A DNA stretch of 64,000 bases from Candidatus Wolframiiraptor sinensis (GCA_023261815.1 JALNKA010000001.1:97347-161346); one strand, 5' to 3'; counted from the stretch's first letter, positions 21,760 to 44,455 are shown. Numbers and translations are program-made. The notes: a model not told the origin generated them from the letters alone.

Positions 21760-23058
21760 TCATTCATTGATTATCCTCAGCTTGATAACGTGGACTGAGC
21801 ACGAGATGCATGGATCATAGTTCCTTATCGTCATCTCCACAATCCGCTGCGCAGTCTCCGGCGGCCCTTTCACGATCAGATCCCCAACCTTGAATATGTC
21901 CTCCTCCATCGCCATGTAGTTCTGGGTTGTCGGCGGGATGATGTTCGCGTAAACTATTCTGCCCAGCTCATCTATCCTGTAGCGGCGATAAAGCATCCCC
22001 CTTGGAGCCTCGACTATCGCCGCCGCCTCACCAGCCCTCACCCTCGCATCAACGTATGGCGTCTGCGGCTCGGAGTACTCCTCAACGAGCCTCCCAACCT
22101 CGATTATCGAGTGAAGATTCTCGGCGGCCCTCGCAACGATGCTCTGATAAGTATTCTTGAGCGGAGCCCTATAGCCCGCCGCCTCGAGAACATCTCTAAC
22201 CTCGGGTGCTAGGAGGTCATAGTTTAGGTTGAATCTCGCGATGGGGCCCGTGATGTAGGGCTTGCCGTTCCTCAGCCTGTAATGGAGCCCATTCGAGTAC
22301 ATCTTTTGCTCGACGGTGATGTTCTCCTCGAAGGAGTCCTCGGGAAACTCCCAGCCAAGATTATTCGCGACCAATCCCTCAAGTATCGGATATTCCTTTC
22401 TGCCTTTCAGGGACATTAGTGTCATGTCGTACTGGATGTCAGGCAGATCCATGTTGAGCACGAATTCCAAGAGCTCTTCCCCCTTCCTCCTGATCTCCTC
22501 ATAGTTGCGTGATAATGGCTCAAGCTCCTCCTTTCTGATGATCCTATAGAGCCCTCCAATCCTGAAGCCTATCGGATGGATTGCTCTGCCGCCGATTATC
22601 TCTATTGCTCTATTGCCCCAGTCCCTTACGGCGATCGCGTTCCTGACGAGGTTGGGGTAATCCTTCGCCATCTCGAGCGCCGAGTGATATCCGAGGAAGT
22701 CCGGCGCATGGAGGAAGGCGAAGTGCAGGACATGACTCTCAATCCACTCGCCGTAAAAGGCTATTTTTCTCAGCACCTGTATCTCCTCCGGGACATTTAT
22801 CTCGAGTATCTTCTCCATGGCCCTGCAAGCAGCGAAGATATAGGCCAGCGGGCATATCCCGCAGATCCTCGCCGTTATATCAGGCGCCTCAAGATATGAT
22901 CTTCCACGGAGAAATGCCTCGAAGAATCTGGGAGGCTCGAATATATTGACCTCGACGTAGTCTATCTTGCCGTTCTTCACTCTTACCCAGACTCCTCCTT
23001 CGCCCTCGACCCTCGCCAGCTGGCTGACTTTTATCTCGAAGCTCTTATCCCCGCTCAT
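21760..23058 (-). CDS. hydA: sulfhydrogenase (group 3b [NiFe] hydrogenase) alpha / large subunit
   Basis: RICGICP at the N-terminus and DPCISCSVH at the C-terminus, which are the Ni-Fe ligand motifs. Confidence 0.85.
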   Translation of the reverse strand: MSGDKSFEIKVSQLARVEGEGGVWVRVKNGKIDYVEVNIFEPPRFFEAFLRGRSYLEAPDITARICGICPLAYIFAACRAMEKILEINVPEEIQVLRKIAFYGEWIESHVLHFAFLHAPDFLGYHSALEMAKDYPNLVRNAIAVRDWGNRAIEIIGGRAIHPIGFRIGGLYRIIRKEELEPLSRNYEEIRRKGEELLEFVLNMDLPDIQYDMTLMSLKGRKEYPILEGLVANNLGWEFPEDSFEENITVEQKMYSNGLHYRLRNGKPYITGPIARFNLNYDLLAPEVRDVLEAAGYRAPLKNTYQSIVARAAENLHSIIEVGRLVEEYSEPQTPYVDARVRAGEAAAIVEAPRGMLYRRYRIDELGRIVYANIIPPTTQNYMAMEEDIFKVGDLIVKGPPETAQRIVEMTIRNYDPCISCSVHVIKLRIINE

Positions 23059-23830
23059 ACCTCTCTAGGAACCTCCTTAAGGGCTCAGACCAGCTACTAA
23101 AATTCCTCAACTTGAGGATGACCTCCTCCCTTGGAAGCCCGATCTCCTCGAATCCCCTAGCGAGCGCCTCGGGCTTCGGGTCGATCATCGGGCCAAAGCA
23201 CCCATAGCATCCGCGAGCATAACTTGGGCAGAGGGCGCCGCATCCCTCAACCATTATCGGCCCGAGGCATGGTGTGCCTCGTGACACCATCACGCAGACA
23301 TTTCCCCTGCGCTTGCATTCTTGGCATAGGCTCTCGAGCCTGTGATAGGGCCTCTTCCCGACAAGCACCTGCTTCAAGACGCTCAGGAGCTGGAGCCTAT
23401 TAACTGGGCAGCCGCTGACCTGATAATCCACCTTAATGTGCTCGGATATCGGGGTGGTCTTATCAAGGCTGTTAATCCACTCGGGCCTGGGGTAAACTTG
23501 TCTGACGACATCCCCATGATCCATCCAGTTTCTCAGCGACTGAGGCCCGCCATGGACTGCGCAGGTGCCTATCGGGATCACGATCTTCGAGTTTCTCCTG
23601 ATGCTCTTTACAACCTCCATCTCGTGGGGCGTTGGGATCGATCCCTCGATTAAAGCGACATCATAGGGCCCTGGATCAATCCTGCTGCTGGCCTCGAGGA
23701 AATACGCGATCTCGACCTTCTCAATTATCGAGAGCAGGTCTTCTCCTAGGTTTATCAGCTCATCTTGGCATCCGCTGCATGAAGAGAATTTGAAGACCGC
23801 CAGCCTCAGCTTTCCACCATTCCTGCTCAT
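23045..23830 (-). CDS. hydD: sulfhydrogenase delta / [NiFe] small subunit
   Basis: SCSGCQ, GTCA and GCP cluster-binding motifs. Confidence 0.8.
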   Translation of the reverse strand: MSRNGGKLRLAVFKFSSCSGCQDELINLGEDLLSIIEKVEIAYFLEASSRIDPGPYDVALIEGSIPTPHEMEVVKSIRRNSKIVIPIGTCAVHGGPQSLRNWMDHGDVVRQVYPRPEWINSLDKTTPISEHIKVDYQVSGCPVNRLQLLSVLKQVLVGKRPYHRLESLCQECKRRGNVCVMVSRGTPCLGPIMVEGCGALCPSYARGCYGCFGPMIDPKPEALARGFEEIGLPREEVILKLRNFSSWSEPLRRFLERYERG

Positions 23831-23833
23831 ATC

Positions 23834-24661
23834 TCATCCACCCAGAAGTATTTTTTTAATGAGCCAGTACGGGAACACGGGTCCATTCTTGCGAACGAAG
23901 TAGGGGCCCACCTGGCAGTGGCCGCATAGACCGACTCCGCATTTCATCCTCCTCTCCAGGGAGAGGTAGATTTGATTCTCCTTAAACCCGACTTCCTCGA
24001 GGGCCTTGACCGTGAAACGCATCATTATCTCGGGGCCGCAAACGAGCGCAATAGTCTTTTCAATATTTATCCTAGCCATGGGTATGAGCTCGGTGACGAC
24101 GCCGACGTTATCCCTCCAAGTTTCATCGGGGTGATCAACCGTTAGCAGGAACTCTGTGTTCGGTATCTCCCTATATCGGTCGAACTCATAGCGGTAGAGA
24201 AGGAGGTTAGGCGTCCTCGCACCATAAAGTATGGTGAGCTTACCATATTTTTCTCGGTTTTTCTCGATCTCCAAAATGACCCCCCGGAGTGGAGCTAGCC
24301 CAATCCCGCCGGCCACTATGAGAACATCCTTTCCCACAAGCCTCTCAAGAGGCCAGCCCTTGCCATAAGGCCCCCTTAGGCCCACAATACTTCCCTCGCT
24401 CAGCTTAAACAGGTAATCTGTTAGGGCGCCCACGGACCTCACCGTCTGGACTATGATCCCGCCCTCTTCGCAGCCGCAGATGGAGACCGGTGTCTCGCCT
24501 ACGCCGGGAACATAAATCTCCGTGAATTGTCCGGGTTTAGGCTGCTCCACGAGCCCCCCATGAACTCTGAAGTAAAAGGTCTTGGTATCCGGCGTCTCCG
24601 GCACAACCTTAACTATCTCGGCTCTGCCAGGCGCCATGAGGGTTCTAACTATCTCTTGCAC
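23834..24661 (-). CDS. hydG: sulfhydrogenase gamma subunit (FAD/NAD(P)-binding with 2Fe-2S, PyrK-like)
   Basis: PyrK-like fold ending in a C-terminal CGVGLCGHC motif. GTG start. Confidence 0.8.
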   Translation of the reverse strand: MQEIVRTLMAPGRAEIVKVVPETPDTKTFYFRVHGGLVEQPKPGQFTEIYVPGVGETPVSICGCEEGGIIVQTVRSVGALTDYLFKLSEGSIVGLRGPYGKGWPLERLVGKDVLIVAGGIGLAPLRGVILEIEKNREKYGKLTILYGARTPNLLLYRYEFDRYREIPNTEFLLTVDHPDETWRDNVGVVTELIPMARINIEKTIALVCGPEIMMRFTVKALEEVGFKENQIYLSLERRMKCGVGLCGHCQVGPYFVRKNGPVFPYWLIKKILLGG

Positions 24662-25739
24662 CTCGTCTCCACCTCCTTAACCACATCTCTCACAACCTGC
24701 CTGACATCTATTCCCGCGGGGCACCACGTTATACATCTGCCGCACCCCACGCAGCCGAACGTTCCAAATTGCCTAAGCCAGTACACGAACTTGTGAAGAA
24801 CCCAGTGCCTATACCTAGCATAGAGACTTTTCCTGAAATGTCCTCCCGCAACCTGCGCGTAGCTGTAGCTGTGGCATCCATCTCAGATTCTAATACGTTT
24901 CGCCGATCCATCGAGCTCCGGCTCATCGAGCACGTCGAAGCAGAAGCACGTGGGGCAGACCATGTTGCAGTTCGCGCAGCCGAAGCATTTCTCAGCAGTC
25001 TTCCTGTAAACCTCAGAATTCATCCCTATCTCAAGGGTTTCAGGGAGGTTTTCCAGCGTGAACTCAACTCGAGCTCTCTTGGACGCCTCCAGCATGAGTT
25101 CCTTAAACCGGTCAACCTGCTCATCCTCAGCCGGCCTGAGATTAAGCTCGCTGAGAACATCCACGCCAAGATCGCTTCCCGGCTGAAAGATGACGACGCC
25201 ATCGCCAATTCTGGTGTAGGCTATGTCAAATCCCTTGAACGCGAAGGGGCCGGTGCCCATGGTCGCGCAAAAACAAGTCCCGCCGGGCTCTACGCAGTTC
25301 TCAACTATGAGGAGCAGGTCCTTCCTAACTTTTCTGTAATACTCGTCTCCCAGCTCGCCTTGAACACCATCCATAATGCTTATCGCGGCGAGATCGCAGG
25401 GCTTTATGCCGAAGAAAGCCGTCTTAACAAACTCTAAGCTCGGGTACTCCACGCTCAGATCAGGCTTGATGACGAATAGGAGAAGCTCGGGGGGATATAG
25501 GAATCTCTTCGGCGAGTCCGGGCCGTTCCTGAACCTGCCACCATTATTGGCGACGCGATAATATCCGGGAGCCTGCTCATCCCCATAGCCGTAAGTAATC
25601 TCGTCAATGTCTCGAGCCTAATAGCTGAATCCACGAGCTTAGGCCCTATAACCCGATAACCCCTAGAAGTCACAGCCTTAAATAGCGCCCTAAGCTCATA
25701 CTCTATTCCAGAGTAAATCGGCCCACGAAACAACACTTG
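24649..25739 (-). pseudogene. hydB: sulfhydrogenase beta subunit HydB, with a 1-nt deletion near 25607-25616 and an in-frame TGA (24873-24875) at a conserved Trp position
   Basis: Frame A reads continuously as YRVANNGGRFRNGPDSPKRFLYPPELLLFVIKPDLSVEYPSLEF...CPTCFCFDV...RIRI-TGA-DGCHS...HWVLHKF...GCVGCGRCITWCPAGIDVRQV, ending at stop 24649. The N-terminal 45 aa (MLFRGPIY...SAIRLE) are in a different frame. Confidence 0.65.
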
Positions 25740-25913: not shown

Positions 25914-26902
25914 CTATGATTGGGCCATCATCAGCCCCTTCAAGTTCGCACTTTCCACACTCACCATGTCACGGCTCAATTTGACGTTCATGTCTATTAT
26001 TATCTCCGCGATCTCAGCTGAGAGCTCGGCCTGCCTCTTCATGCTCCATATAAACTGCGTGAAGTTCGGGCAAAGCACGTTCACATCACACTTAATCGAC
26101 TTATACCTTAGTTGGTCTACGAGCTCGCTCTCCCCGAATTCCAGGTCCTCGAAATACTTCCTTATGGCCTCATTGGCCAGCTTAACATCCCTCGAGAATA
26201 GGGCTTTCATGACTTTTTCGCGAATATCTCTGCACCGCTCATAATATTTCGTCAATTTTGAAGCGTTTCTTGATCCAGCTCAACCTCGCAAGTTAGTATC
26301 TTTAGGACGCTTCTGGCGCCTAGTTTGGATAAATCTGCCATCCTCTCGAGACAGTATCCCACTATCGCGAGGAAGGATATCTCTGAGGACCGCGTAACCC
26401 CGAGCTTCTCGGCAAAGCCTTTCTTCTTATGAGCTATCGAAAGCGCCCTGGAAAACAGGTAGTAGAGCCTATTGACCTCCTCATCCCTGATCATTACCGT
26501 TTTGGCCAGCTCCCGGTTTCCCTCGATGAACGCCCTGAAATACTCCTCTTGCATAGATGAGGCCAAATTACATATTCTCTCCAGAATCGAGTATATTGGA
26601 GACTTAAGGACATCCAGCATGCATTGTAGAATGACATGCTGCTCATTTTCATCCATTATGGAAACCCCGGTCAATAGTTTCGCCGCCTCGCGAATTTCCT
26701 TAATATGCCTATAATTCAAGCGGGTCTCCGAGGAGACCTCAATCAAATCGACACCGGCAATATAGCTTCCAACAATCAGCCTATGCAGGAGGCCGGGCTG
26801 ATCGCATAAATCCGCGTTTATCCTGCATGCTTCAAGAACGTAATCCGAGCCAGCCTGGGCGGGCCAAAGAATGAGCGAGCCATCATGAGCCTCCTCAACC
26901 AC
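25914..26902 (-). pseudogene. PhoU-domain protein (two PhoU repeats) split by a 1-nt deletion at the A-run 26255-26258
   Basis: PhoU repeat (ELAKTVMIRDEEVNRLYYLFSRAL...YCLERMADLSK) in ORF 26252..26902. The second repeat continues in ORF 25914..26255 in the -1 frame. Confidence 0.55.
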
Positions 26903-27037: not shown

Positions 27038-27080
27038 CCTCTTGATACTTATCCGATGTTCTCGGATAAGTATCAAGAGG
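27038..27080. promoter_or_regulatory. perfect 19-bp inverted repeat with a 5-nt spacer (CCTCTTGATACTTATCCGA-TGTTC-TCGGATAAGTATCAAGAGG)
   Basis: Read directly from the sequence. It sits at the 5' end of the nuoE-like gene, just downstream of an AT-rich divergent promoter region (TAGATATATGATATATATCGA). Confidence 0.7.
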
Positions 27081-27485
27081 AACGGGGAAAGGAATTCGGC
27101 GAATCTTATCGAGTCTTTGCAAAAGCTGCAGGAGAGATATGGGTTCTTGCCGAAGGACGCTCTAATGAAGCTTTCCAAGGATGTGGGAGCTCCTTTGAGC
27201 AGGATATTCGGCGTCGCGACTTTCTATCACCAGTTTAAGCTGGAGTCGCCTGGAAAAGTCCTGATCTCGGTTTGCATGGGAACAGCATGCCATCTTAGGG
27301 GCGATGCCAACAACTACGAGTTCCTGAGGAGGTTTTTAAGAATAGCACCAGGCAAATCCGTCAGCGATGATGGCCTATTCTCCTTAGAGAAGGCTAGGTG
27401 CTTCGGCTGCTGTAGCCTGGCCCCAGTAGTGAGAGTTGGCGATAAGCTCATCGGCAAGGCCACGCCCAGGAGCTTCAGAGAATAA
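27042..27485 (+). CDS. NuoE/HoxE/HydC-like thioredoxin-fold [2Fe-2S] protein; the start is uncertain
   Basis: GVATFYHQF...CMGTACHLRG...CFGCCSLAPV motifs. The annotated TTG start lies inside the palindrome. An alternative ATG at 27056 in another frame gives a NuoE-like MFSDKYQEERGKEF start, which would need a frameshift. Confidence 0.7.
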   Translation: MILIRCSRISIKRNGERNSANLIESLQKLQERYGFLPKDALMKLSKDVGAPLSRIFGVATFYHQFKLESPGKVLISVCMGTACHLRGDANNYEFLRRFLRIAPGKSVSDDGLFSLEKARCFGCCSLAPVVRVGDKLIGKATPRSFRE

Positions 27486-27549
27486 TCTCCCAGGTAAGGG
27501 AGTCGATCTTGAGGGAGGAGACTGTTCGCGGAGCTGGAGGCGATAAAAC

Positions 27550-29523
27550 ATGATGAGACAGGAGTATTGGACGCTAATGGATCCATGCTGCGATTACTGC
27601 CTTCATTCGGCGAGCAATCCTTGCGTGAAGTATGTTGTCTGCCGGGTGCGCGGGCCATTCTGTCACAAGAGCGTGATGTGCAGGAATAGGAGGCAGCAGA
27701 GGATCAAGAAGGTGCTCTATGGTCCGCAGGGCGTTAGAATCAATGTCGGCGCGTCGAGTTGCGGCTTGGCCGCTGGGGCTGAGAAGGTTCTCGAAGCGGT
27801 GAAGGATAATCTCAGGTCTATGGGTGTGGAGGCGGAAGCCTCTGCAGTGGGCTACCTGGGATTATGCTTCATGGAGCCCTTCATCGAGATACGCAGCGAG
27901 GATGGCCCCTCCCCGATTTACGGCCATGTATCCCCGGATAATGTTGGTGAAATATTTGCAAAGTATTTTGAGGAGGGTAGCGTGGATGGCGCATTTGAGA
28001 TCAGAAGGCGCACAGGCAGATTCAAGGACGAGGATAAGGTTCCATTACTTGATGAGCTCGATGTATGGAGGAAGCAGGTAAAATGGGTTTCTAGGAACTG
28101 CGGAGTGATTAACCCGGAGTCGATTGAGGAGTACATCGTCTCGGGCGGATATGAGGGGCGCTCGAGAGCGCTAATGATGAAACCCGAGGAGGTTATAGAG
28201 GAGATCAGGTTATCGGGGCTTAGAGGCAGGGGCGGAGCCGGATTCCCAACCTGGCTCAAGTGGAAGGTGTGCCGAGAGCAGCCATCTAAGGAGAAGTACA
28301 TCATCTGTAATGCCGATGAAGGGGATCCGGGAGCTTTCATGAATAGGCTGCTCGCGGAGTCCGATCCACATAGAGTTCTGGAGGGCCTCATAATTGCCGG
28401 CTACGCGATAGGAGCCTCTCATGGCGTGATATTCGTTAGGGCTGAGAAACCCCTCATGGCCGCCAGACTCGAGAAGGCCGTGGAAGATGCTCGCAGATGG
28501 GGCCTCTTGGGTGAGAACATTCTAGGGACTGGATTCAATTTCGACGTGAGGGTGATGAGGAGCGCCGGCGCATTCGTATGTGGAGAGGAGACGGCGATGA
28601 TAGCGGCCATAGAGGGGAGGCGGGCGATGCCTAGGCAGAGGCCTCCCTACCCGGCTTCGAAGGGTCTCTGGGATAAGCCGACGGTAGTCAATAATGTCGA
28701 GACGCTGGCACACGTCGCGACGATAATGGCTCATGGATGGCAGGAGTTCGCGAAGTACGGCACCGAGCGGAGTAGGGGGACGAAGATGTTCTGCGTAACC
28801 GGTGGCGTGAAGAGAACTGGTGCATTCGAGGTCCCCATAGGAACCACCATCAGAACCCTCGTGTGCGATATAGCTGGAGGGCCGCATGAGGGCAGGAAGA
28901 TAAAGGCGGTCCAGATAGGCGGCCCATCAGGCGGCTGCCTCCCGGAGAGGCTATTCGATCTGCCCATCGATTATGAGAGCCTCCAAGAGGCCGGCGCGAT
29001 AATGGGCTCCGGGGGATTGGTCGTGATAGACGACTCCAATTGCATGGTTGATGTCGCCAGATACTTCACGTCATTCACGCTGGCGGAGTCATGCGGCAAA
29101 TGCGTGCCATGTAGAACAGGCACGAAGACCCTGTATGATCGCTTATCAGCCATAGTTGAGGGGCTGGGCGATCCAGATGATCTGCGGCTGCTGGAAGAGG
29201 TTGGAACGATGATGAAGGATGCGGCCCTATGCGCACTGGGCGGAACAGCGCCCAATCCGATACTATCCTCGCTCAAGTACTTCAAAGACGAGTATGAGGA
29301 GCATATAGTGGGGAAGAGGTGCCCGGCGAAGGTTTGCAGCAAGCTCGTGACATACAATATAAACAGAGAGCTTTGCGTCAAGTGCGGGTTATGCGCTAAA
29401 TCATGCCCAGCAAACGCGATAATTAAAACCGACGATGGATTCTTCGCGGTTGATCAGCATAAGTGCATCAAGTGCGGCACATGCTTCATCACATGCCCGA
29501 GGGACGCTGTTGAGAAGAGGTGA
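27550..29523 (+). CDS. NuoF/HoxF/HydB-like NAD(P)H-binding flavoprotein with an N-terminal Trx-like domain and C-terminal 2x[4Fe-4S]
   Basis: GLRGRGGAGFPT (NADH), the FMN and N3 cluster region (ESCGKCVPCR), and C-terminal CVKCGLCAKSCP / CIKCGTCFITCP. The true start may instead be ATG 27676. Confidence 0.85.
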   Translation: MMRQEYWTLMDPCCDYCLHSASNPCVKYVVCRVRGPFCHKSVMCRNRRQQRIKKVLYGPQGVRINVGASSCGLAAGAEKVLEAVKDNLRSMGVEAEASAVGYLGLCFMEPFIEIRSEDGPSPIYGHVSPDNVGEIFAKYFEEGSVDGAFEIRRRTGRFKDEDKVPLLDELDVWRKQVKWVSRNCGVINPESIEEYIVSGGYEGRSRALMMKPEEVIEEIRLSGLRGRGGAGFPTWLKWKVCREQPSKEKYIICNADEGDPGAFMNRLLAESDPHRVLEGLIIAGYAIGASHGVIFVRAEKPLMAARLEKAVEDARRWGLLGENILGTGFNFDVRVMRSAGAFVCGEETAMIAAIEGRRAMPRQRPPYPASKGLWDKPTVVNNVETLAHVATIMAHGWQEFAKYGTERSRGTKMFCVTGGVKRTGAFEVPIGTTIRTLVCDIAGGPHEGRKIKAVQIGGPSGGCLPERLFDLPIDYESLQEAGAIMGSGGLVVIDDSNCMVDVARYFTSFTLAESCGKCVPCRTGTKTLYDRLSAIVEGLGDPDDLRLLEEVGTMMKDAALCALGGTAPNPILSSLKYFKDEYEEHIVGKRCPAKVCSKLVTYNINRELCVKCGLCAKSCPANAIIKTDDGFFAVDQHKCIKCGTCFITCPRDAVEKR

Positions 29524-29529
29524 TGTTGG

Positions 29530-30147
29530 ATGAAGATCAAGATAAACGGATTGGAGGTTGAGGCCAAGGAGGGCGAGAGAATACTCGATGTAGCTGATCG
29601 CCTAGGAATCAGGATACCAACCTTATGTTATCTCAGGGGCATATATGAGGGTGCCTCCTGCAGGATATGCGTCGTCGAGCTGAATAATGGGAAGCTCATA
29701 CCTGCATGCGCATACGAAGTATCCGACGGCCTCGTGCTCAGCACGGATACTCCTAGGATTAGAGAGAGCAGGCGCCTAACCCTGGAGCTGCTGCTCTCCG
29801 CCCATAGAATCTCATGCCAAGATTGCCCCAAGAAGGGAGAATGCGCCCTAGTAGAGTTATGCTCAGAGTACGGCGTCGAGGGGATACCGGTCTGCGCCGA
29901 ATGCTCCCTCCACGAAGAGGACTGCTTCCTCGGGAGAGGCGAGATCTGCTTGGGCCCGATCACAATCAGCGGCTGCAAAGCTGAATGTATTCGTGATGGA
30001 AAGCCGTGCGAGGGATGTAGGGGCCCCGTCACTAGGAGAGACGTGTTAGAGCGGGGTCGAGCAATATACCTCGAGCATGGCATACCGCTTGAAATGTTCT
30101 CGAGAAGCTCAAGATCTACTGCGCCTCCTCACGCGAATTCGATCTAA
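29530..30147 (+). CDS. HydA/NuoG/HoxU N-terminal-type iron-sulfur protein (2Fe-2S ferredoxin plus His-ligated 4Fe-4S) as a stand-alone 205-aa protein
   Basis: C33-x10-C44-x2-C47-x12-C60, then H92-x3-C-x2-C-x5-C, then a non-canonical 8-Cys segment. Confidence 0.7.
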   Translation: MKIKINGLEVEAKEGERILDVADRLGIRIPTLCYLRGIYEGASCRICVVELNNGKLIPACAYEVSDGLVLSTDTPRIRESRRLTLELLLSAHRISCQDCPKKGECALVELCSEYGVEGIPVCAECSLHEEDCFLGRGEICLGPITISGCKAECIRDGKPCEGCRGPVTRRDVLERGRAIYLEHGIPLEMFSRSSRSTAPPHANSI

Positions 30148-30184
30148 TTCGTGAACGCCTCATGGTGAGTGAGGTGATCGAGAA

Positions 30185-31474
30185 ATGATGAGCATCTCGG
30201 GTATTGATAGGATAGTGGGCCACGCCACCCTGGACGTGGATATCGATGGAGGAGCGCTGAATGCGCGTTTCAAGGTACTGAATGATCCGCGTTTCATAGA
30301 GGCCATAGTGATCGGCAAGAAGTACCATGAAATTCCGTCAATCGTTTCGAGGATATGCGGGCCTTGCAGCGTCAGCCACACGATAACCGCCATAATGGCC
30401 GTGGAGAAAGCTCTCGGGATAAGCGTCCCCGAGCCCGTGAAGATCCTCAGGAAGATAGCCGTGCTCGGAGAGGTGGCAGAAAATCACCTACTGCATCTCA
30501 CGCTCGTCGTCATGCCGGAATACTTTGGATACGATGATCTTCTCGAGGTCGCGAAGTACAAGCCCGAATCCCTCAGGAAGATACTGCTCATCAGATCCCA
30601 GCTTTCCAAGGTGATGGAAATGATATCAGGGAGGCTCGTCCACCCAAGCGCGCTATCAATAGGCGGGTTCACGAGAATGCCTGGAGAAGCGAGGCTCGAG
30701 GATGCAAAGAGCATCTTGAAGGAGATCAAAAGCAGGATAAGCGAGATCGTAGAGCTATTCCTCGAGACGGAGTTCCCCGAGTTTGAGGTATTAATGGAGG
30801 CCTGTGCATCCCTCAAGGACGGCTACCTCTACATCGGCGATGAGATCATCACCTCAGATGAGCGCGAGGTTAGAGCCGAGGACTATAAGAGAATATTCAT
30901 AGAGGATGTACAGCCTTACACAACTTCAAAGAGCGTAACGCTCGAGGGAATGCCAGTATACGTTGGGCCTAGGGCCAAGGTAAACTTGAAAGCGGACCTG
31001 CTTTCAGATCAGGCTAAGTCTTATCTCAAAATGAGGAGCTTCCCCCTGAGAAGCCCGTTCGATAATCTCCGGGCGCAAGCCATCGAGCTAATTCACTGCA
31101 TAGATGCCATGCAGATGTTGATCGAGGATGTGGCGAGCATTTCCAGCATAGGATCCGAGCAGAGAGAATCTAGGATCATGGCCAGAGAGGGGGCTGGAGT
31201 TGGCGTGTCCGAAGCTCCACGCGGCCTACTAATACACCATTACGAGTTTAATCGATGGGGGAATGTCATCTACGCAAATGTGATAACGCCGACGACGATA
31301 AACTCCAGGCACGTGGAGGTCGCCGCCCTAGAATTAATCAGGCACTACTTCTACGAGGACATGCCGGTCAAAGAGATAGAGCGCTATCTAAGAAAGCTCG
31401 TGCAAGCGTTTGACCCGTGCCTAGGCTGCGCAACCCACTCCGTCAAGATAAACATCAGGGGGCTCAAGCCATGA
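30185..31474 (+). CDS. [NiFe] hydrogenase large subunit (group 3, HoxH-like)
   Basis: RICGPCSVSH (L1) and DPCLGCATH (L2) ligand motifs; 429 aa. Confidence 0.85.
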   Translation: MMSISGIDRIVGHATLDVDIDGGALNARFKVLNDPRFIEAIVIGKKYHEIPSIVSRICGPCSVSHTITAIMAVEKALGISVPEPVKILRKIAVLGEVAENHLLHLTLVVMPEYFGYDDLLEVAKYKPESLRKILLIRSQLSKVMEMISGRLVHPSALSIGGFTRMPGEARLEDAKSILKEIKSRISEIVELFLETEFPEFEVLMEACASLKDGYLYIGDEIITSDEREVRAEDYKRIFIEDVQPYTTSKSVTLEGMPVYVGPRAKVNLKADLLSDQAKSYLKMRSFPLRSPFDNLRAQAIELIHCIDAMQMLIEDVASISSIGSEQRESRIMAREGAGVGVSEAPRGLLIHHYEFNRWGNVIYANVITPTTINSRHVEVAALELIRHYFYEDMPVKEIERYLRKLVQAFDPCLGCATHSVKINIRGLKP

Positions 31475-32859
31475 GAATCGGGATTTACTCGTTCGGCGGA
31501 TGTGAGGGCTGCAGATACTGGCTAATAGACTCCCTTCTGAGGATATGCGGGGAGCTGGGCGCCGAGATAGCCTACGAGCCGCTCATAGGCCTCTCCAAGG
31601 AAAGCCCGGAATACGATGCGGTGGTAATCGAAGGGGCTGTTTGCACGGAGGAGGATCTCGAGAAGATTCGAGGTCTGAGATCGCGGGCGAAATACGTCAT
31701 AGCCCTGGGGTCATGCGCCCTTCTAGGCGGGGTGCCGGGCAATAAGAGGTTCGCGGACCAGCATGCTGTTGAAAGAGTTTACCTCGGCAAACCTCTGCCG
31801 AAAAAGCCCCTCGACGTGAAGCCCGCAATCGCTCATGTGCGAGTGGACTACTGGATTAGAGGCTGCCCCCCGAACCGGGAAAACTTTGAGAAAGTCTTTC
31901 GAGCGATAATCTCCGGTATAGCCTCCGGAGAGCCGTTCAAGCTCCATGAGAGGCGCATAGAGTTCTGCAGGGATGAGTTCGCCAAGATCGAGGGAAGCGT
32001 GCTCAGGCTCGATGGAGACAAGTGCATAGTCTGCGGGAGATGCGTGGGCGTATGCGAGAAAATGGGAGTCTACGCGATAGACTTCGCCTACAGGAGCGTG
32101 AGCACGATGGTGACAACGCCCTTCGAGCTGCCATTCGATGAGAGCGCGTGCGTGCTATGCGGCCAGTGCGCGCTGGTCTGCCCGGTCGGCGCCATGCGCG
32201 AGAGAAGCGACTTGGAGAAGGTTCAGAGAATGCTGGCCAAGCCCACGGCGTTGAAGGCGTACATCGAGCCGGAGAGCCTGGCGGCCATGTCCAGCTACTT
32301 CAACCGCGAGGTTGAGGTAATAGTCGGAGCATTACTCGCGAGGGGCTTCGAGAGCGTCGCGATGTACGTGCCGGAGCCCCGCGCCGATGCCGATAAGCCG
32401 CTGATCCCCATGAGCGAAGCTGAGCGGAGGTTCGTCAACCTGCTTCATCCCGGGTTGGCTGAGAAGCTCTCGGATCCCCCAGCTCTGCCAATCGGCTCAT
32501 CAGTCCTGATAACACCATGTCTGGCCAAGAAGGCGCAGGCACGCGAGGGGGTGGTCTTAACGACGCGGGAGGCGATCAAGCTCATCTCCAGCGTGGACTT
32601 GGATGAGGTTGATGAGGTCTCGCCGATAACGCCCGCCAAGATGGGCGGAGCCTACGGGGAAGTTCATGGACCGGATGCCGTGATCAGGTTCTTGGATGAA
32701 TGCGCCGAGGGGCTGAGCGTCAGGGAGCCGACAGTGCTGAAAATATGTCCCGGCGGATGCATCAGAGGTGGTGGGCAGCCATATTACAGCGAGGACCTGT
32801 ATCGGAGGATGAGCAAGGCGGCGGCGAAGATATCCTCCGCGCTCATGGCCGTCGGCTAA
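31471..32859 (+). CDS. [NiFe] hydrogenase small subunit (HoxY-like) fused to a 2x[4Fe-4S] ferredoxin and a reduced, Cys-depleted [FeFe]-hydrogenase H-domain-like C-terminus
   Basis: MRIGIYSFGGCEGC...GSCA...GCPP (proximal cluster). Then CIVCGRCVGVCE and CVLCGQCALVCPVG. Then EKVQRMLAKPTALKAYIEP..., ITPCLAKK (L2-like), VVLTTRE and ICPGGCIRGGGQP (L3-like). There is no cysteine where the L1 TSCCPGW motif is expected. Confidence 0.8.
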   Translation: MRIGIYSFGGCEGCRYWLIDSLLRICGELGAEIAYEPLIGLSKESPEYDAVVIEGAVCTEEDLEKIRGLRSRAKYVIALGSCALLGGVPGNKRFADQHAVERVYLGKPLPKKPLDVKPAIAHVRVDYWIRGCPPNRENFEKVFRAIISGIASGEPFKLHERRIEFCRDEFAKIEGSVLRLDGDKCIVCGRCVGVCEKMGVYAIDFAYRSVSTMVTTPFELPFDESACVLCGQCALVCPVGAMRERSDLEKVQRMLAKPTALKAYIEPESLAAMSSYFNREVEVIVGALLARGFESVAMYVPEPRADADKPLIPMSEAERRFVNLLHPGLAEKLSDPPALPIGSSVLITPCLAKKAQAREGVVLTTREAIKLISSVDLDEVDEVSPITPAKMGGAYGEVHGPDAVIRFLDECAEGLSVREPTVLKICPGGCIRGGGQPYYSEDLYRRMSKAAAKISSALMAVG

Positions 32860-33350
32860 GAGGGCCGCGAAAAGTTCGATGGATTGCGCTTGAGGAATCG
32901 GGATACTTCCTCCAAAATTTTTGGGATTGCTTTCTCCACCTCAACGCTCAATTTTATTCCCGGGCTTATGTCCTTGACCCCCACGCCGATCAAGAAGATC
33001 CTTCGGGGCATTTTCTCCCCGAATAGCTCATAGCCCAGCTTTATGGCCGAGACCACATCGATGTCATGCAGCGATTGGATCTCATCCATGGATCCTTGAG
33101 TGAGTTCCCCTAGATCGATCACGACAACCTCTCCGGGGGCTAGTCCCGATTTTATGGAATCTATTATCACCACTTCATCGAACTCCATGATCTCATCGAG
33201 TAGCGCGAAGACGTTTGAGCCGCTCTCGAAGATTCTCACCTCGGCGGGCATCTCGCGCTCGAGCAGGATCTCGCCCACGATTAAGCCGACAGCATCATCG
33301 CCCATCAGCCTGCTGCCAACGCATAGGATTAAAGTCCTTTGAGCCCCCAT
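32856..33350 (-). CDS. hydrogenase maturation endopeptidase (HycI/HoxW family)
   Basis: The ILCVGSRLMGDDAVG motif typical of hydrogenase C-terminal proteases. Confidence 0.8.
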   Translation of the reverse strand: MGAQRTLILCVGSRLMGDDAVGLIVGEILLEREMPAEVRIFESGSNVFALLDEIMEFDEVVIIDSIKSGLAPGEVVVIDLGELTQGSMDEIQSLHDIDVVSAIKLGYELFGEKMPRRIFLIGVGVKDISPGIKLSVEVEKAIPKILEEVSRFLKRNPSNFSRPS

Positions 33351-33409: not shown

Positions 33410-34474
33410 CTAGCAGATTCTCGGAATCGGGTCTCCAATGGGCATCGGCAGATACCTTAATCCGCCTATCTCGGTCTCGACCACGACGCCCTCATGCTCG
33501 CCCGAGAACCACCCTATGATCTCGGCCTCGCGGCCCATCGGGTGGGATCGAAGAGCTTCCAGAACATCTTCCGCGAACTTCTCGGAGACCGCTAAGACCA
33601 CTCTTCCCTCGCATGCCAGTTCAAGGGGGTCTATGCCGAGTATCTCGCAGCCGGTTCTCACCTCATCGCGGATCGGTATGAGTGCCTCTTTAACCAAGAT
33701 GCCGAAGCCCGTGGCCTCGCTCCACTCGTTTAGAAGCGCCGCCAACCCTCCTCTCGTTGGATCCTTCGCCGCTAGGACTCCTCCAGCCTCGAGAGCCCTC
33801 TCCATTAGGTGGTTTAATGGCGCGGTGTCGGATCTTAGGCCCGGCGCCTCGAAGCCAAGCTCACCCCTCGCGGCTATTATCGTCATTGCGTGATCTCCGA
33901 TGGGCCCTGAAACTATCAGCCTATCTCCCGGTTTTATATTTCGTGGATCAAGCCACCTCGATCTCAGGGACCTGCCATCAGATGCCGCCTTCTCCAAGTT
34001 CTTGTCCAGATGCGGGCTTCTCCTCCCGATGCCGGCCGTATTGATTATCATCTCATCGAGCTTTCCCCTCTCGACGACCTTCGTGTCTCCTGTCACGATC
34101 TCGACTCCCGCCTCCTCGGCAGCCTCCTCCATGCTCGATAATATTCTATCGAGCTTCTCGATCTCGAATCCTTCCTCGATCACGAGGGCGCATGAGATCG
34201 CCAGCGGCTCGCTCCCGATCACGGAGAGGTCGTTCACGGTCCCTGAGATGCTCAGCCTCCCGATATCCCCTCCGGGGAAGAAGAGGGGCTTAACCGTGTA
34301 TGAGTCTGTCGTGAAGGCTATTCCGTTGACCACGGCTGAGTCCGTGAGAAGCGTAAGAGGGATTTCAACGCTTCTCCTCTGCTTGAACCTCGGTAGAATG
34401 TGCTCCTTGATGAGCTTGTGCATGTATAGGCCGCCAGCACCATGCGCTATGCTTATCTTCTCATCCGCCTTCAC
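33410..34474 (-). CDS. hypE: hydrogenase maturation protein HypE
   Basis: AIR-synthase-related fold ending in the conserved C-terminal PRIC. Confidence 0.9.
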   Translation of the reverse strand: MKADEKISIAHGAGGLYMHKLIKEHILPRFKQRRSVEIPLTLLTDSAVVNGIAFTTDSYTVKPLFFPGGDIGRLSISGTVNDLSVIGSEPLAISCALVIEEGFEIEKLDRILSSMEEAAEEAGVEIVTGDTKVVERGKLDEMIINTAGIGRRSPHLDKNLEKAASDGRSLRSRWLDPRNIKPGDRLIVSGPIGDHAMTIIAARGELGFEAPGLRSDTAPLNHLMERALEAGGVLAAKDPTRGGLAALLNEWSEATGFGILVKEALIPIRDEVRTGCEILGIDPLELACEGRVVLAVSEKFAEDVLEALRSHPMGREAEIIGWFSGEHEGVVVETEIGGLRYLPMPIGDPIPRIC

Positions 34475-34496: not shown

Positions 34497-35675
34497 TCAT
34501 AACCTCCTTACATATTTTGTTCCATGATTTATCCTGCATGCTTCACTCATACACCTGAAATCCTTGACGAGAATCCTGTTCTGCGCCCAGATCCTGCATG
34601 TTCCCTCAAGCCCCACCATCGGTGGGCCGATCGGGGTTGATGGCGTGCACGCCTTCATGTATAACGGGCAGTCCGGTGGATTTATTATCCCCTTTATTAT
34701 CTCGGCGCATCTGGCCTCTTGCGGGAAGTAGTCTCCCCCACCGCGCTCTAGCCCGTAAACCCGCCTCGCGTCGTCCTGGGAGAACTTCTCCTTGAGATTC
34801 ATCGCGCTCGCGGGTATGATCGCGACCCCCCTCCAGTAGCCATCCTCGAAATCGAAGACCTCTTGTAGCGCTTTCTGCGCCTTCAGGTTTCCTTCCCACG
34901 TCACGGATCTCACGTACTCGTTTTCCATTCTCGGAACATTCTCCCTCAACTGCTTGAGGATCATGTATATGGCTACAAGGACATCTATGGGCTCGAATCC
35001 CGCGAAGACCATGGGCTTCCCGCACTTATCGAAGTACGGCTTATACGCCCTCATGCCGCTCACGGTCGAGGCATGGCCTGGGTTTATGAAAGCATCTATC
35101 TCGAGATCCTCAGATTCGGCTAGAAACCCCACCGCCGGCGGAACATACCTATGAGCCGAGAGAACCTTAAGATTTCTCGGAAGGCCTTTCAGAATATAGT
35201 ACGCTACTGTGGGCGCAGTCGTCTCGAATCCAGCTCCCAAGAAGACGTACTCGCTATCAGGATTGCTGCTGGCGATCCTAACGGCGTCCATGAAGCTGTA
35301 CACGACCCCGACCTTCCCTCCATCGGCCGCGCAGTCCTCGAGCGAGATCATCCTCGAGCCCTTTGCCCTCGACACGTCGCCGTATGTGAGGACGTTGATT
35401 CCATCTAGTGCGAGCTTCACCGCCACGTCTATATCAGATGCGGGGGTTATGCAGACGGGGCACCCGGGTCCACCCCTAACCTCGATATTATCCGGGAGGA
35501 GAGCCCTAATACCCCAGTGAGTTATAGTCCATTCATGAGTTCCGCACACGTGCATTATCCTTATCTTTGGAAGATCCCTCGCGAGATCCCAAATCCTCGC
35601 GACTAACTTTCTAGCTAGAGCCGGGTCCCTATATCTCGAGAGAACGGCTTTCATGGGATCGGCGGAATCCACCAT
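34497..35675 (-). CDS. hypD: hydrogenase maturation protein HypD
   Basis: CGTHE and GPGCPVC motifs. Confidence 0.9.
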   Translation of the reverse strand: MVDSADPMKAVLSRYRDPALARKLVARIWDLARDLPKIRIMHVCGTHEWTITHWGIRALLPDNIEVRGGPGCPVCITPASDIDVAVKLALDGINVLTYGDVSRAKGSRMISLEDCAADGGKVGVVYSFMDAVRIASSNPDSEYVFLGAGFETTAPTVAYYILKGLPRNLKVLSAHRYVPPAVGFLAESEDLEIDAFINPGHASTVSGMRAYKPYFDKCGKPMVFAGFEPIDVLVAIYMILKQLRENVPRMENEYVRSVTWEGNLKAQKALQEVFDFEDGYWRGVAIIPASAMNLKEKFSQDDARRVYGLERGGGDYFPQEARCAEIIKGIINPPDCPLYMKACTPSTPIGPPMVGLEGTCRIWAQNRILVKDFRCMSEACRINHGTKYVRRL

Positions 35676-35760: not shown

Positions 35761-36252
35761 ATGAGCTGGAGGGAGAGGCTCGAGCAGATCCTCAACAGCG
35801 TATCGGTGAGCGGCGGAGACCTGGTTATCGTCGGGATAGGAAACACGCTTCGCGGAGATGATGGAGTTGGAGTCGAGCTCGCAAGAATCCTGAAAGAGTC
35901 CATGAAGAGCGAGCGCGCAAAAGTATTCATCGTGGAGGATAAAGTTGACCTAATTCCGAAAATGCTGAGGGATGTGAATCCCGGGATCATTCTGCTCTTG
36001 GATGCGGCGGACTTCGGAGGCAGGCCAGGAGAGATCAGAATCATGAAGCTTGAGGAAGCCTCGAGAAAAGCCATCTCGACGCATGAACTGCCCCTAGACC
36101 TTATCATGAAAGCAGCCGGAATAAGCGCACCGGCATACGTCCTAGGAATACAAGTTGAAAACCTAGAATTTGGAAAGGAAGTGAGCCCCCAAGTTAAGGC
36201 AGCGGCGAATGAGGTTGCGAGCCTCCTATTAAAGCTCGTGGTGAGCTTGTGA
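35761..36252 (+). CDS. hydrogenase maturation endopeptidase (HycI family), second copy
   Basis: GIGNTLRGDDGVG motif. Lies immediately upstream of the group-4 hydrogenase cluster. Confidence 0.8.
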   Translation: MSWRERLEQILNSVSVSGGDLVIVGIGNTLRGDDGVGVELARILKESMKSERAKVFIVEDKVDLIPKMLRDVNPGIILLLDAADFGGRPGEIRIMKLEEASRKAISTHELPLDLIMKAAGISAPAYVLGIQVENLEFGKEVSPQVKAAANEVASLLLKLVVSL

Positions 36253-36329
36253 TATTACTGCGTTATAAACTCCGCATGCGCCGAGACTAAACTTAAATTT
36301 GGGTTACCGGACTGTAGTGTTGACCTTTC

Positions 36330-36659
36330 ATGGAGGAGCTCATCATCGCGCTTACCGTAACATTTCTTGTGATCCTCCTCATTTATCTCTTAGGCGGCAG
36401 GTTATCCGTTAAGGCTCCTAAAAGCAGGATGAAGCTCGAGCCCTATGCTTGCGGGGAGAGCCTTCCCCCGGCTAGAAGTCCGATAAGGCTACTCTTTTTC
36501 AACTTTGCCGCGCTATTCCTAGTATTCGATGTCATCGCCCTCTTCCTGGCATTCACGATAAATATTCCGCCAGCATATAAGCCCGGAGTAATCAGCCTTC
36601 TCATGCTTTACATGCTCGTGCTCGGGATCGCGATCCAGCTCCTGGGAAGAAGGAGGTGA
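36330..36659 (+). CDS. NuoA/ND3-like membrane subunit
   Basis: Three TM helices and the LEPYACGE motif. Confidence 0.75.
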   Translation: MEELIIALTVTFLVILLIYLLGGRLSVKAPKSRMKLEPYACGESLPPARSPIRLLFFNFAALFLVFDVIALFLAFTINIPPAYKPGVISLLMLYMLVLGIAIQLLGRRR

Positions 36660-36666
36660 ATGCCAT

Positions 36667-37107
36667 TTGGGCCTTGTCGAGAAGCTCGTGAGAAAATGTA
36701 GGGCGAGAAGCCCTTGGATACTCCTATTCGATACCGGAGCATGCAATGCATGCGATATAGAGATCGCCGCTTGCCTCACACCGCGCTATGATGTCGAGAG
36801 ATTCGGGGTTCTCGCGAAAGGCAGCCCTAGGCACGCGGACATACTCGTCATTACCGGGCCCGTTACCAGGCAGGTCAGGGATAGGCTCATTAGGATCTAT
36901 GAGCAAATGCCGGAGCCGAAGTACGTGGTCGCCGCAGGCACCTGCGCTACAAGCGGCGGGGTATACTGGGGGTGCTACAATACGTATCCGAGCCTTGACT
37001 CCGTCATTCCGGTTCATGCGTATGTCTCGGGTTGCCCAGTGAAGCCTGAGGCGATTCTGAGGGCGATCAGCGTGCTCGTCGAGAAGATCGAGAAGGGGGA
37101 GGCTTAA
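36667..37107 (+). CDS. NuoB/PSST-like (group-4 hydrogenase small subunit type)
   Basis: DTGACNACDIE, GTCATSGG and GCPVKPE cluster N2/proximal-cluster motifs. Confidence 0.85.
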   Translation: MGLVEKLVRKCRARSPWILLFDTGACNACDIEIAACLTPRYDVERFGVLAKGSPRHADILVITGPVTRQVRDRLIRIYEQMPEPKYVVAAGTCATSGGVYWGCYNTYPSLDSVIPVHAYVSGCPVKPEAILRAISVLVEKIEKGEA

Positions 37108-37108
37108 G

Positions 37109-37579
37109 TTGAGCGAGGAGGGTCTTCTCAGAAAGATTACTGAGAGATTTGGAGATAAGATAATTGAAGCTAAGGTTCTCGGGAAGAGAAGGGTCTCCAT
37201 CCTAGTTTCTCCTGATGCTTACAAGGATGTCGTGAGATATGCCGCCCAAGATCTCGGCTTGGAGTTTCTCAGCTGCCTGAGTGGGGTTGATCGGGGAGAT
37301 AGCCTTGAGGTCGTGGTGCACTTGGGATACTCGATGCACGTGCTCATCAAAACCCGCGTCTCTAAGGATGATCCAGCCGTGGACTCGATAACCGATATTC
37401 TCCCAGCCGCGAGCCTCTACGAACGGGAAATACATGATCTGCTGGGCATCGCATTCAAGGGCCACCCGAATCTCAAGAGGATCTTCTTGCCCGAGGATTG
37501 GCCCGAAGGAGTTTACCCGCTTAGGAAGGATTACTCTCCAGAGCATCCAAAGCCATTGAGGGGTGGTGAGGCCGTGTGA
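37109..37579 (+). CDS. NuoC (30 kDa)-like subunit
   Basis: NuoC fold (ERExHDLLGIxFxGHP). Confidence 0.8.
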   Translation: MSEEGLLRKITERFGDKIIEAKVLGKRRVSILVSPDAYKDVVRYAAQDLGLEFLSCLSGVDRGDSLEVVVHLGYSMHVLIKTRVSKDDPAVDSITDILPAASLYEREIHDLLGIAFKGHPNLKRIFLPEDWPEGVYPLRKDYSPEHPKPLRGGEAV

Positions 37580-39731: not shown

Positions 39732-39733
39732 GG

Positions 39734-40084
39734 ATGAAGGTTCCCGGGCGCCTAGTGGCGGAGGCCCTGAAAAGCTTGTTCAGGAGAAGGGCCACGATTC
39801 TCTACCCATACAGGGAGCTCGACAAAGTTCATCTACCCGAGGGATTCAGGGGAAGAATAGAGTTCGATCGCTCGAAGTGCATCGGGTGCCAGCTCTGCTT
39901 CAGGGTCTGTCCCGCGAAGGCCATCGAGATCGTAGATGATGAGAAGGGAAAGAGGCCGATCTTCTACATCTACAGGTGCATATACTGCGCTCAGTGCGCC
40001 GAGGTCTGCCCGACCAAGGCGATAAGCATGAGCAAGATCTTCGAGAACATCGCCCTAAGAAAGGAGGACATGGTGGTGAGATGA
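39734..40084 (+). CDS. NuoI (TYKY)-like 2x[4Fe-4S] subunit
   Basis: [12 protein letters not shown] and [12 protein letters not shown] motifs. ATG at 39734 directly after the nuoH stop. Confidence 0.85.
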
Positions 40085-40326: not shown

Positions 40327-40327
40327 G

Positions 40328-44452: not shown

Positions 44453-44455
44453 AAA

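Follow-up and report, generated by a model that had tools for sequence, protein, structure and literature searches.

Which site would handle H2 in an archaeal enzyme that combines the scaffold of an [FeFe] hydrogenase with the catalytic module of a [NiFe] hydrogenase? The question is raised by five genes on the + strand of a 64,000-nucleotide stretch of DNA from Candidatus Wolframiiraptor sinensis (GCA_023261815.1 JALNKA010000001.1:97347-161346), the whole of which is called the window below. The genes are, in order, hydC (27042..27485, 147 amino acids (aa) if the start is the TTG at 27042), hydB (27550..29523, 657 aa), which encodes a Bfu-type NuoF-like flavoprotein, hydD (29530..30147, 205 aa), hyhL (30185..31474, 429 aa), which encodes a group-3 [NiFe] large subunit, and a fusion gene (31471..32859, 462 aa), whose product joins the N-terminal domain of a [NiFe] small subunit to the rest of HydA. 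An earlier reading made from the sequence alone (the sequence-only reading) had described these five open reading frames (ORFs) as a HydABC-type scaffold carrying a [NiFe] module, and the translations and the matches in Pfam, NCBIfam, and the PDB bear out the ORFs and their domain content. Judging from the sequence, we consider it reasonably probable that the five genes code for one soluble, Bfu-type [NiFe] hydrogenase linked to nicotinamide adenine dinucleotide (NAD(H)) and ferredoxin, bifurcating or confurcating, in which the [FeFe]-type catalytic domain (H-domain) would hold an Fe-S cluster only.

The genes are separated by 64, 6, and 37 nucleotides and the last two overlap by 4 nucleotides, the ATG of the fusion gene (31471) sharing ATGA with the stop codon of hyhL. 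The five window proteins were compared by tblastn with loci of relatives found by scanning the GTDB species genomes, and the order hydC-hydB-hydD-hyhL-fusion was recovered in about 20 archaeal loci from Caldarchaeales, Desulfurococcales, Thermofilaceae, Pyrobaculum, Ignisphaera, and Brockarchaeota; this is the synteny that the sequence-only reading had proposed to look for. Since the gene order is conserved in these loci an operon is supported, and the tight spacing together with the synteny suggests that the five genes are co-transcribed. The order to which Wolframiiraptor belongs is Caldarchaeales, formerly Aigarchaeota, which we take to be placed in Nitrososphaeria in GTDB.

The arrangement itself is not new because the same architecture has been published. 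Greening et al. (Cell 2024; PMC11216029) reported five-gene hybrid hydrogenase clusters in 21 archaeal genomes, defined by a fusion of an N-terminal HyhS domain to a C-terminal HydA domain and accompanied by contiguous HyhL, HydB, HydC, and a four-cluster HydD. In their naming the [FeFe] part is group F and the [NiFe] part group 3f, and they gave an AlphaFold model of a five-subunit bifurcating complex. This is evidently the 2024 study that the sequence-only reading mentioned, and the novelty that it implied is not supported. With the same five components, the same fusion, a four-cluster HydD, and an archaeal host, the window locus belongs by its sequence to the group F/3f class, and what is new, besides the short form of its H-domain, is the host order: the main text of PMC11216029 names neither Caldarchaeales nor Nitrososphaeria nor Wolframiiraptor. 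The screen in that study demanded only the CxxxC of motif L3, which the fusion of the window has. Such hybrids are among the more surprising recent finds in H2 metabolism. The tested ones are all Thermoplasmata proteins, and the window locus widens the class to Caldarchaeales, that is, to Wolframiiraptoraceae-like hot-spring fermenters. The metabolic model of Wolframiiraptor (PMC9246946) discusses only the membrane-bound Mbh, and a soluble NADH/ferredoxin-linked hydrogenase would change this Mbh-only picture of redox balance.

HydA and the small subunit, each split between two genes

The sequence-only reading had HydA divided around the [NiFe] module, and the alignments agree. The N-terminal part of HydD (aa 1-125; 29530..29904, +) contains PF13510 (Fer2_4) and PF10588 (NADH-G_4Fe-4S_3), that is, the [2Fe-2S] and the His-ligated [4Fe-4S] of the HydA N terminus. 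Its aa 3-125 align with residues 6-129 of HydA1 (7q4v_A) at E 1e-25 and it matches positions 2-123 of the NCBIfam model FeFe_hydrog_A6 at E 7e-37. HydA resumes in the fusion, where aa 174-246 (31990..32208, +) form a HydA-type F-domain that matches FeFe_hydrog_A6 positions 137-242 and has two [4Fe-4S] at aa 180-242 (cluster cysteines C185-C195 and C227-C237). The alignment of fusion aa 174-290 with residues 135-254 of HydA1 8a6t_A is continuous into the H-domain (phmmer against the PDB, domain E 1.6e-23). HydD and the C-terminal two-thirds of the fusion together give the HydA domains in order, namely, [2Fe-2S], His-[4Fe-4S], 2x[4Fe-4S], and H-domain.

What the sequence-only reading overlooked is that the small subunit is split too, its C-terminal two-cluster domain being on HydD. 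The reference used here was the group-3b small subunit that is encoded in the window itself (23045-23830, -). Fusion aa 1-149 are 33% identical to aa 8-158 of this protein (E 4e-21) and HydD aa 121-188 are 38% identical to its 8-Cys medial/distal domain, aa 168-235 (BLASTP, E 4e-9). The small-subunit N-domain of the fusion, aa 1-150 (31471..31920, +), has PF01058 (Oxidored_q6) over aa 11-145, and the cysteines of its proximal [4Fe-4S], C11, C14, C82, and C132, are invariant in the family. The C-terminal part of HydD, aa 121-205 (29890..30147, +), is a medial/distal domain for two [4Fe-4S] with 8 Cys, and it matches NCBIfam ShyD positions 157-209 at E 6e-12, with matches to VhuG and to the sulfhydrogenase HydD as well. 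The ligand residues of HydD, 4 + 4 + 8, are enough for four clusters. FrhG-type small subunits have a layout similar to that of the fusion but their matches are much weaker (NCBIfam).

By these alignments gene 3 is an N-terminal HydA piece followed by a C-terminal small-subunit piece and gene 5 is an N-terminal small-subunit piece followed by a C-terminal HydA piece, with hyhL lying between. In a Thermoplasmata relative HydD is 46% identical over its full length, the small-subunit C-terminal domain included. In PMC11216029 all three [4Fe-4S] that the fusion carries are counted with the small subunit of the [NiFe] module, whereas in the window the medial/distal domain of the small subunit sits on HydD and the two ferredoxin-type clusters in the fusion line up with the F-domain of HydA. 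The reciprocal split gives a tangible hint of the way in which the two lineages of hydrogenase came to be joined.

Compared with HydABC (T. maritima 7P5H; A. woodii / T. kivui 7Q4V, 8A6T), to which the window is homologous throughout HydB and HydC, HydA in the window is split and a large subunit and a split small subunit are inserted between its halves. The closest structurally solved functional analogue of the proposed complex is the bacterial NiFe-HydABCSL of A. mobile (7T2R/7T30), but the HydA of this enzyme (692 aa) was matched only in its N-terminal Fe-S modules, and its C-terminal part is, we presume, NuoG-like with no H-domain. The small subunit of the A. mobile enzyme is separate and, at 179 aa, too short for a medial/distal domain, and no reciprocal split is seen in this enzyme.

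HydB, HydC, and the [NiFe] large subunit

HydC is of the NuoE type (PF01257, E 7e-37, aa 14-146; Pfam) and its translation shows the Cx4C...Cx3C cysteines of a NuoE/HoxE-like [2Fe-2S] subunit with a thioredoxin fold. HydB has a Cys-rich N-terminal prefix with CCxxC (aa 8-55), a thioredoxin-like (Trx-like) domain at about aa 63-180, a core with a flavin mononucleotide (FMN)/NAD(H) site, SLBB, and an N3-type [4Fe-4S] (Pfam, NCBIfam), and a C-terminal 2x[4Fe-4S] region (aa 603-654) with two CxxCxxCxxxCP motifs. Its matches in the PDB over aa 64-656 are NfnB 9n5u_B (E 6e-206), NiFe-HydB 7t2r_B (E 7.5e-194), and FeFe-HydB 7q4v_B/7p5h_B/8a6t_B (E 1e-178 to 1e-181). Taken together, the end-to-end alignments of HydB are to B subunits from four structurally solved families of bifurcating Bfu enzymes, namely NfnABC, StnABC, NiFe-HydABCSL, and FeFe-HydABC, 8oh5_B included, and their E values range from 1e-178 to 1e-206. 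The extra Trx-like domain and the C-terminal CxxCxxCxxxCP pair that the sequence-only reading saw in HydB are confirmed. HydB has the FMN/NAD(H) site, the N3 [4Fe-4S], the C-terminal 2x[4Fe-4S], and the Trx-like domain of a Bfu B subunit, with a caveat at residue 102, and the companions of such a subunit are present as the NuoE-like [2Fe-2S] protein HydC and the HydA/NuoG-type [2Fe-2S] plus His-[4Fe-4S] module of HydD.

The caveat concerns one cysteine. Across 18 relatives the cysteines of HydB are kept, among them all 8 of the ferredoxin tail and those of N3, with the exception of C102. This site is a conserved Cys in the GC(L/I)GxC of the N-terminal Trx-like domain and is Cys in 17 of the 18, but codon 102 of the window (27853-27855) is TAC, which codes for Tyr; in the copy of locus L084, which is 98% identical, it is TGC. 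Either C102Y is the loss of a [2Fe-2S] ligand in the Trx-like domain or it is a consensus error.

A plainer explanation of the locus is that it codes for a non-bifurcating, NAD(P)-reducing [NiFe] hydrogenase like Hox or SH, in which the HydA parts are wiring and the H-domain is a leftover without a cofactor. The HoxE, HoxU, and NuoF models do match, more weakly but recognizably, C102Y in HydB would fit such an enzyme, and the HydB of Thermoplasmata, which has 413 aa and no ferredoxin tail, argues that bifurcation is not obligatory in the class. However, all the Hox equivalog scores are far under their cut-offs, HydB in the window has the complete Bfu architecture with 8 of 8 C-terminal Cys conserved, and a leftover without a cofactor would not need the three Cys, the Ser, and the Glu that are invariant in the H-domain at 28-96% identity. 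We regard this explanation as improbable. An ordinary group 3d HoxEFUYH, which shares the idea of a diaphorase, was ruled out, as the sequence-only reading had held: HoxE, the best NCBIfam match of HydC, reaches 121.7 bits where the cut-off asks for 224, HoxU reaches 96.6 bits where it asks for 333, and homology to the H-domain is present.

HyhL (PF00374) has both CxxC pairs intact in its translation, in RICGPCSVSH and DPCLGCATH, and 11 residues (SVKINIRGLKP) follow the His of the latter motif as a C-terminal extension for endoprotease cleavage. HyhL thus shows the RxCGxCxxxH, the DPCxxCxxH, and the cleavable tail of a group 3 large subunit, and a HycI gene is adjacent. The best NCBIfam matches of HyhL are ShyA/HydA, the sulfhydrogenase alpha subunit, and by the E values in the PDB it is nearer to 3b than to 3d large subunits (P. 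furiosus SHI alpha 9nez_D, 7e-60; HoxH 5xf9_D, 5e-38; A. mobile 7t2r_D, 2e-35). Both small-subunit pieces are also closest to the 3b sulfhydrogenases (P. furiosus SHI/SHII), but the hybrid operon does not have the beta and gamma partners (sulfhydrogenase HydB and HydG) of these enzymes.

A shortened H-domain and what it may do

The remainder of the fusion, aa 247-462 (32209..32859, +), is a minimised H-domain of about 200 aa with a C-terminal helix, and by sequence profile and fold aa 174 to 446 of the fusion are homologous to HydA. Matches to HydA1 include L2 (ITPCLAKK) and L3 (ICPGGCIRGGGQP) as well (phmmer, PDB). The H-domain profile A3, built from 21 sequences (the window and 20 loci), matched 43 distinct sequences in the PDB in three collinear stretches at E 2e-17 to 2e-5, all of them [FeFe] hydrogenases, and the next PDB match was at E 0.19. 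The homology of this domain, as judged from these profile matches, is not a matter of chance. The alternative that the sequence-only reading had named for 29530..30147 and 31471..32859, a plain HoxU plus HoxY with no H-domain, does not describe these genes because the A3 profile matches only [FeFe] hydrogenases. An AlphaFold2 model of the fusion, from an alignment of 36 sequences, had a predicted local distance difference test score (pLDDT) of 82.5, and the H-domain was mostly above 85 and often above 90. Against PF02906 (Fe_hyd_lg_C) the H-domain of the window scores 17.2 bits, which is under the gathering score of 22.1, and 16 of 21 relatives are matched at E <= 0.1; since the domain is under the threshold, this may explain why such copies escape annotation.

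The motifs of [FeFe] hydrogenases are kept unequally. In place of L1 (TSCCPxW) the fusion has IPMSEAE, with no Cys at all, and the L1 cysteine is absent in 36 of 36 close family members (413-480 aa). L2 (MPCxxKxxE) is TPCLAKKAQ, with the Cys and the Lys kept and the Met changed to Thr, and L3 (ExMxCxxGCxxGGGQP) is kept as LKICPGGCIRGGGQP with the Met changed to Lys. In the numbering of C. pasteurianum CpI, C299 corresponds to Met314 in the window and to M, A, or F in the family, and C300, which we take to be a ligand of the cubane, to an invariant Ser315. CpI C355, C499, and C503 are kept as the invariant C350, C426, and C430, so that 3 of the 4 cysteine ligands of the H-cluster are present, and GGGQP is kept. 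At other CpI positions the family has K or R for K358, Thr for M353, Glu for S232, and various residues for M497. Two segments are missing from the H-domain of the fusion, the one with E279/E282/R286, presumably the proton path, and F417-V423, which we take to wall the [2Fe] pocket. The domain is about 150 residues shorter than that of CpI, and compared with HydABC it also lacks some 150 residues and the L1 cysteines.

In spite of this reduction the domain is not decaying. P313, S315, E318, C350, C426, and C430 are invariant across the family at 28-96% identity, and in comparison with the 96%-identical L084 the ratio of non-synonymous to synonymous substitution rates (dN/dS) of the H-domain is 0.16 (13 synonymous and 7 non-synonymous changes), similar to the 0.19 of the small-subunit domain. 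By these measures the H-domain is under purifying selection and still functional in some way, and a decaying pseudodomain is ruled out by the invariant residues and the dN/dS. The sequence-only reading had called it an H-domain relic, which is apt for a strongly reduced domain with no L1 Cys but not for one that is conserved.

Further fusions of HyhS to HydA were sought among 1.84 billion representative sequences. The long fusions (563-580 aa), which include a Thermoplasmata protein, have 'SWCP' at L1 and keep the equivalent of C300; the medium fusions (476-520 aa) have 'SWCK/R'; the fusion from Brockarchaeota has 'PCC' and one further protein 'PCS'; and the family of the window has 'PxSEAE'. 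These forms of L1 appear to make up a graded series in which the H-domain of the window is the shortest and most reduced. All the Thermoplasmata relatives found are of the long form, with 'SWCP' and an H-domain of about 330 aa, whereas that of the window, with about 200 aa and no L1 Cys, is some 100 residues shorter than the long form. Several of the long fusions have a single Cys at the CxxC site of the proximal cluster (for example, LTSCAGDQ). The statement in PMC11216029 that all Cys ligands of the H-cluster are conserved was made for the modelled Thermoplasmatota enzyme, and the Thermoplasmata proteins tested and modelled there are probably long forms. The class is thus not uniform, since the form in the window lacks a Cys that the paper treats as conserved and most of the [2Fe] pocket, and the idea of two H2 sites may fail for much of the family. 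The forms of graded length are a natural set in which the least that an H-cluster pocket requires could be studied.

The features of the short H-domain suggest that it probably carries a cubane only, for electron transfer or for contact with ferredoxin. Tentatively, and with somewhat less confidence than we have in the enzyme type, we propose that the short-form hybrid of the window and of its relatives in Thermoproteia, Bathyarchaeia, and Asgard archaea is a bifurcating enzyme with [NiFe] as its only H2 site and a fossil H-domain whose cubane has three Cys and a Ser, and that the L1 series and the reciprocal split would reflect the stepwise replacement of one metal site by another within one complex.

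In such an enzyme the working H2 site would be the [NiFe] centre of HyhL. Electrons would leave it through the proximal [4Fe-4S], which sits in the N-domain of the fusion, and reach the medial and distal [4Fe-4S] that the C-terminal domain of HydD carries. The next carriers would be the His-ligated [4Fe-4S] and the [2Fe-2S] of the HydD N terminus, followed by HydB, with its FMN, NAD(H) site, and C-terminal 2x[4Fe-4S], and by the [2Fe-2S] of HydC. From the same junction a second arm would branch off to the shrunken H-domain by way of both F-domain clusters, and there C350, C426, and C430 with either Ser315 or Glu318 would bind the cubane; the H-domain would then be an additional module for electron transfer or for contact with ferredoxin and not a second H2 site. 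As for physiology, a fermentative archaeon of hot springs may use the enzyme to get rid of NADH and reduced ferredoxin as H2, or to run the reaction the other way. We infer that a complex forms, how its clusters are ordered, that it bifurcates, what cofactors its H-domain contains, and this role; gene content, domain homologies, cysteine patterns, synteny, and purifying selection are observed.

Several points weigh against this proposal. Of the 83 closest matches among bacterial HydA proteins, 78 have Ser at the position of CpI C300, as does the solved HydA1 chain 7q4v_A (TSCSPGW), and in this the window resembles HydABC; since these are bona fide HydA proteins the Ser alone is no proof that the cubane site is lost; a literature search on Ser at this position and activity found nothing useful. 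HydE, HydF, and HydG were not found among the 49 window ORFs scanned, which are nearly all the non-overlapped ORFs of at least 200 aa, and the only radical-SAM protein among them, of 252 aa, is not like HydE or HydG. However, most archaea with active [FeFe] hydrogenases do not have HydEFG, so that their absence from the window says little. In PMC11216029, one of two Thermoplasmata SG8-5 fusions, Th1, evolved H2 after addition of [2Fe]adt, at 5% of CrHydA1, which means that a divergent H-domain of this class can be catalytic. C102Y in HydB, which is unique to the window, could remove one [2Fe-2S]. Lastly, assembly of the five subunits and bifurcation are themselves deduced from sequence.

Some of these points also speak for a true hybrid with two sites, as proposed for group F, in which the short H-domain would bind a full H-cluster, with [2Fe]H supplied by an unknown archaeal route, and the complex would have an [FeFe] as well as a [NiFe] site for H2. 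The Ser in HydA1 and the activity of Th1 favour it, and so do the conservation of C350, C426, C430, GGGQP, and K or R at K358 and the purifying selection on the domain; moreover, the longer Thermoplasmata form is likewise non-canonical at K358 and M497. On the other hand, the L1 Cys that the Thermoplasmata long forms keep is missing from the window, F417-V423 and the proton pathway are gone with the residues by which its H-domain falls short of the long form and of CpI, M497 is variable and M353 is Thr, and the second fusion tested, Th2, was almost inactive (PMC11216029). For the window we think a two-site enzyme unlikely, though it deserves more weight than the Hox-like one.

In another view the H-domain would sense or regulate, gating the flow of electrons through the [NiFe] complex, as has been proposed for the HydS-type enzymes of groups C and D. 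Putative sensory [FeFe] hydrogenases also lack the proton-relay Cys, as the H-domain of the window does. In addition, PMC11216029 speculates that one module might regulate the other. But no PAS or other signalling domain was found by the Pfam scan and the pocket residues are unlike those of groups C and D, and we consider such a role very improbable. A [NiFe]-only bifurcating enzyme with a cubane in its H-domain remains the reading that we prefer.

Relatives, the start of hydC, and neighbouring genes

The nearest relatives among the GTDB species genomes are Candidatus Wolframiiraptor allenii and W. gerlachensis, at 77% identity, and farther ones are from Desulfurococcales, Thermofilaceae, Pyrobaculum, Ignisphaera, and Bathyarchaeia; some protein matches also bear Njordarchaeales and Asgard names. 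A protein identical to that of gene 5 is present in three metagenome-assembled genomes at NCBI (GCA_038833565.1, GCA_038821685.1, and GCA_038838005.1), which, to go by their accession series, would be of Tengchong hot-spring origin (PMC11094006). Compared with the window, a Thermoplasmata hybrid locus shows identities of 46% in HydD, 33% in HyhL, and 30% in the fusion. In the Thermoplasmata-type locus L085 (ENA ERZ27248037) the gene order is rotated, hydC-hydB-fusion-hydD-hyhL, and HydB has 413 aa, without the C-terminal ferredoxin domain and the N-terminal extension, as against the full Bfu type of 657 aa in the window. The Brockarchaeota locus L086 (GCA_017601265.1) has the gene order of the window and is preceded by a HycI gene and a gene for a GAF-domain protein. 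In four Bathyarchaeia loci (L009, L016, L023, and L054) the fusion gene follows directly after hydC-hydB-hydD with no hyhL between; in two of them the fusion gene is in two frames, and in L009 a large-subunit-like gene, 24% identical, lies downstream on the other strand. Such loci may represent decaying copies, or else forms of the cluster that do without a [NiFe] large subunit of their own.

A perfect inverted repeat of 18 bp with a 5-nucleotide spacer, CTCTTGATACTTATCCGA tgttc TCGGATAAGTATCAAGAG, lies at 27039-27079 and coincides exactly with the putative TTG start of hydC; no shuffled sequence reproduced it. Directly upstream, at 27014-32, is an AT-rich, TATA-like stretch. The palindrome was not found upstream of hydC in related loci and has no second copy in the 64-kb window, which rules it out as a conserved operator; it could still serve as an operator or fold into a 5' hairpin. 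The first 12-17 or so residues of HydC, which the palindrome encodes, have no counterpart in the Wolframiiraptor loci (tblastn), and because of this the start codon of hydC is uncertain. A gene for a PhoU-domain protein (26252-26902, -) is divergent from the operon and shares with it an intergenic region of 140 bp, which contains the TATA-like stretch and has the palindrome at its operon-side edge; by position the protein is a candidate regulator of the operon.

Downstream, and convergent with the fusion gene with an overlap of 4 nucleotides at 32856, is the gene for a HycI-type [NiFe] large-subunit endoprotease (32856..33350, -; PF01750, E 6e-18), followed by hypE (33410-34474, -; PF00586/PF02769) and hypD (34497-35675, -; PF01924, E 4e-123) for maturation of the [NiFe] cofactor. 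hycI is syntenic in L001, L002, L003, and L084, and hypE and hypD are syntenic in L001 and L002, which are Wolframiiraptor loci. Domain scans of the window also found hypF upstream of the hybrid operon and a second HycI downstream of it.

About 2 kb upstream of the hybrid operon lie the genes of another soluble [NiFe] hydrogenase, which is like the group-3b sulfhydrogenases (21760-25736, -), and hypF (19398-21704) adjoins it. It consists of a large subunit (21760-23058, -), the small subunit used above as reference, a gamma-like subunit of the flavin adenine dinucleotide (FAD)/NAD type (23834-24661, -), and a beta-like Fe-S subunit in three ORF pieces in different frames (25455-25736, 24883-25452, and 24649-24786, -), which suggests frameshifts, either real or from assembly errors. 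On the other side, at 35761-45940 (+), the gene for the second HycI-like protease precedes a Nuo/Mbh-like cluster with NuoA-, NuoB-, NuoD-, and NuoH-like genes and three antiporter-like subunits. In its NuoD-like protein (37576-38769, +) the two CxxC pairs are intact (RICGIC and DPCICC), which makes this a group-4 membrane-bound [NiFe] hydrogenase, and the window thus encodes three different [NiFe] hydrogenases within 25 kb. Near this hydrogenase island, at 15156-16751 (+), is a GltD/NfnB-like, NADPH-dependent Fe-S flavoprotein (Fer4_20 and Pyr_redox_2; 363 bits against the gltA model, which is under the cut-off), possibly an NAD(P)H/ferredoxin-linked partner such as a sulfide dehydrogenase or an Nfn-like enzyme.

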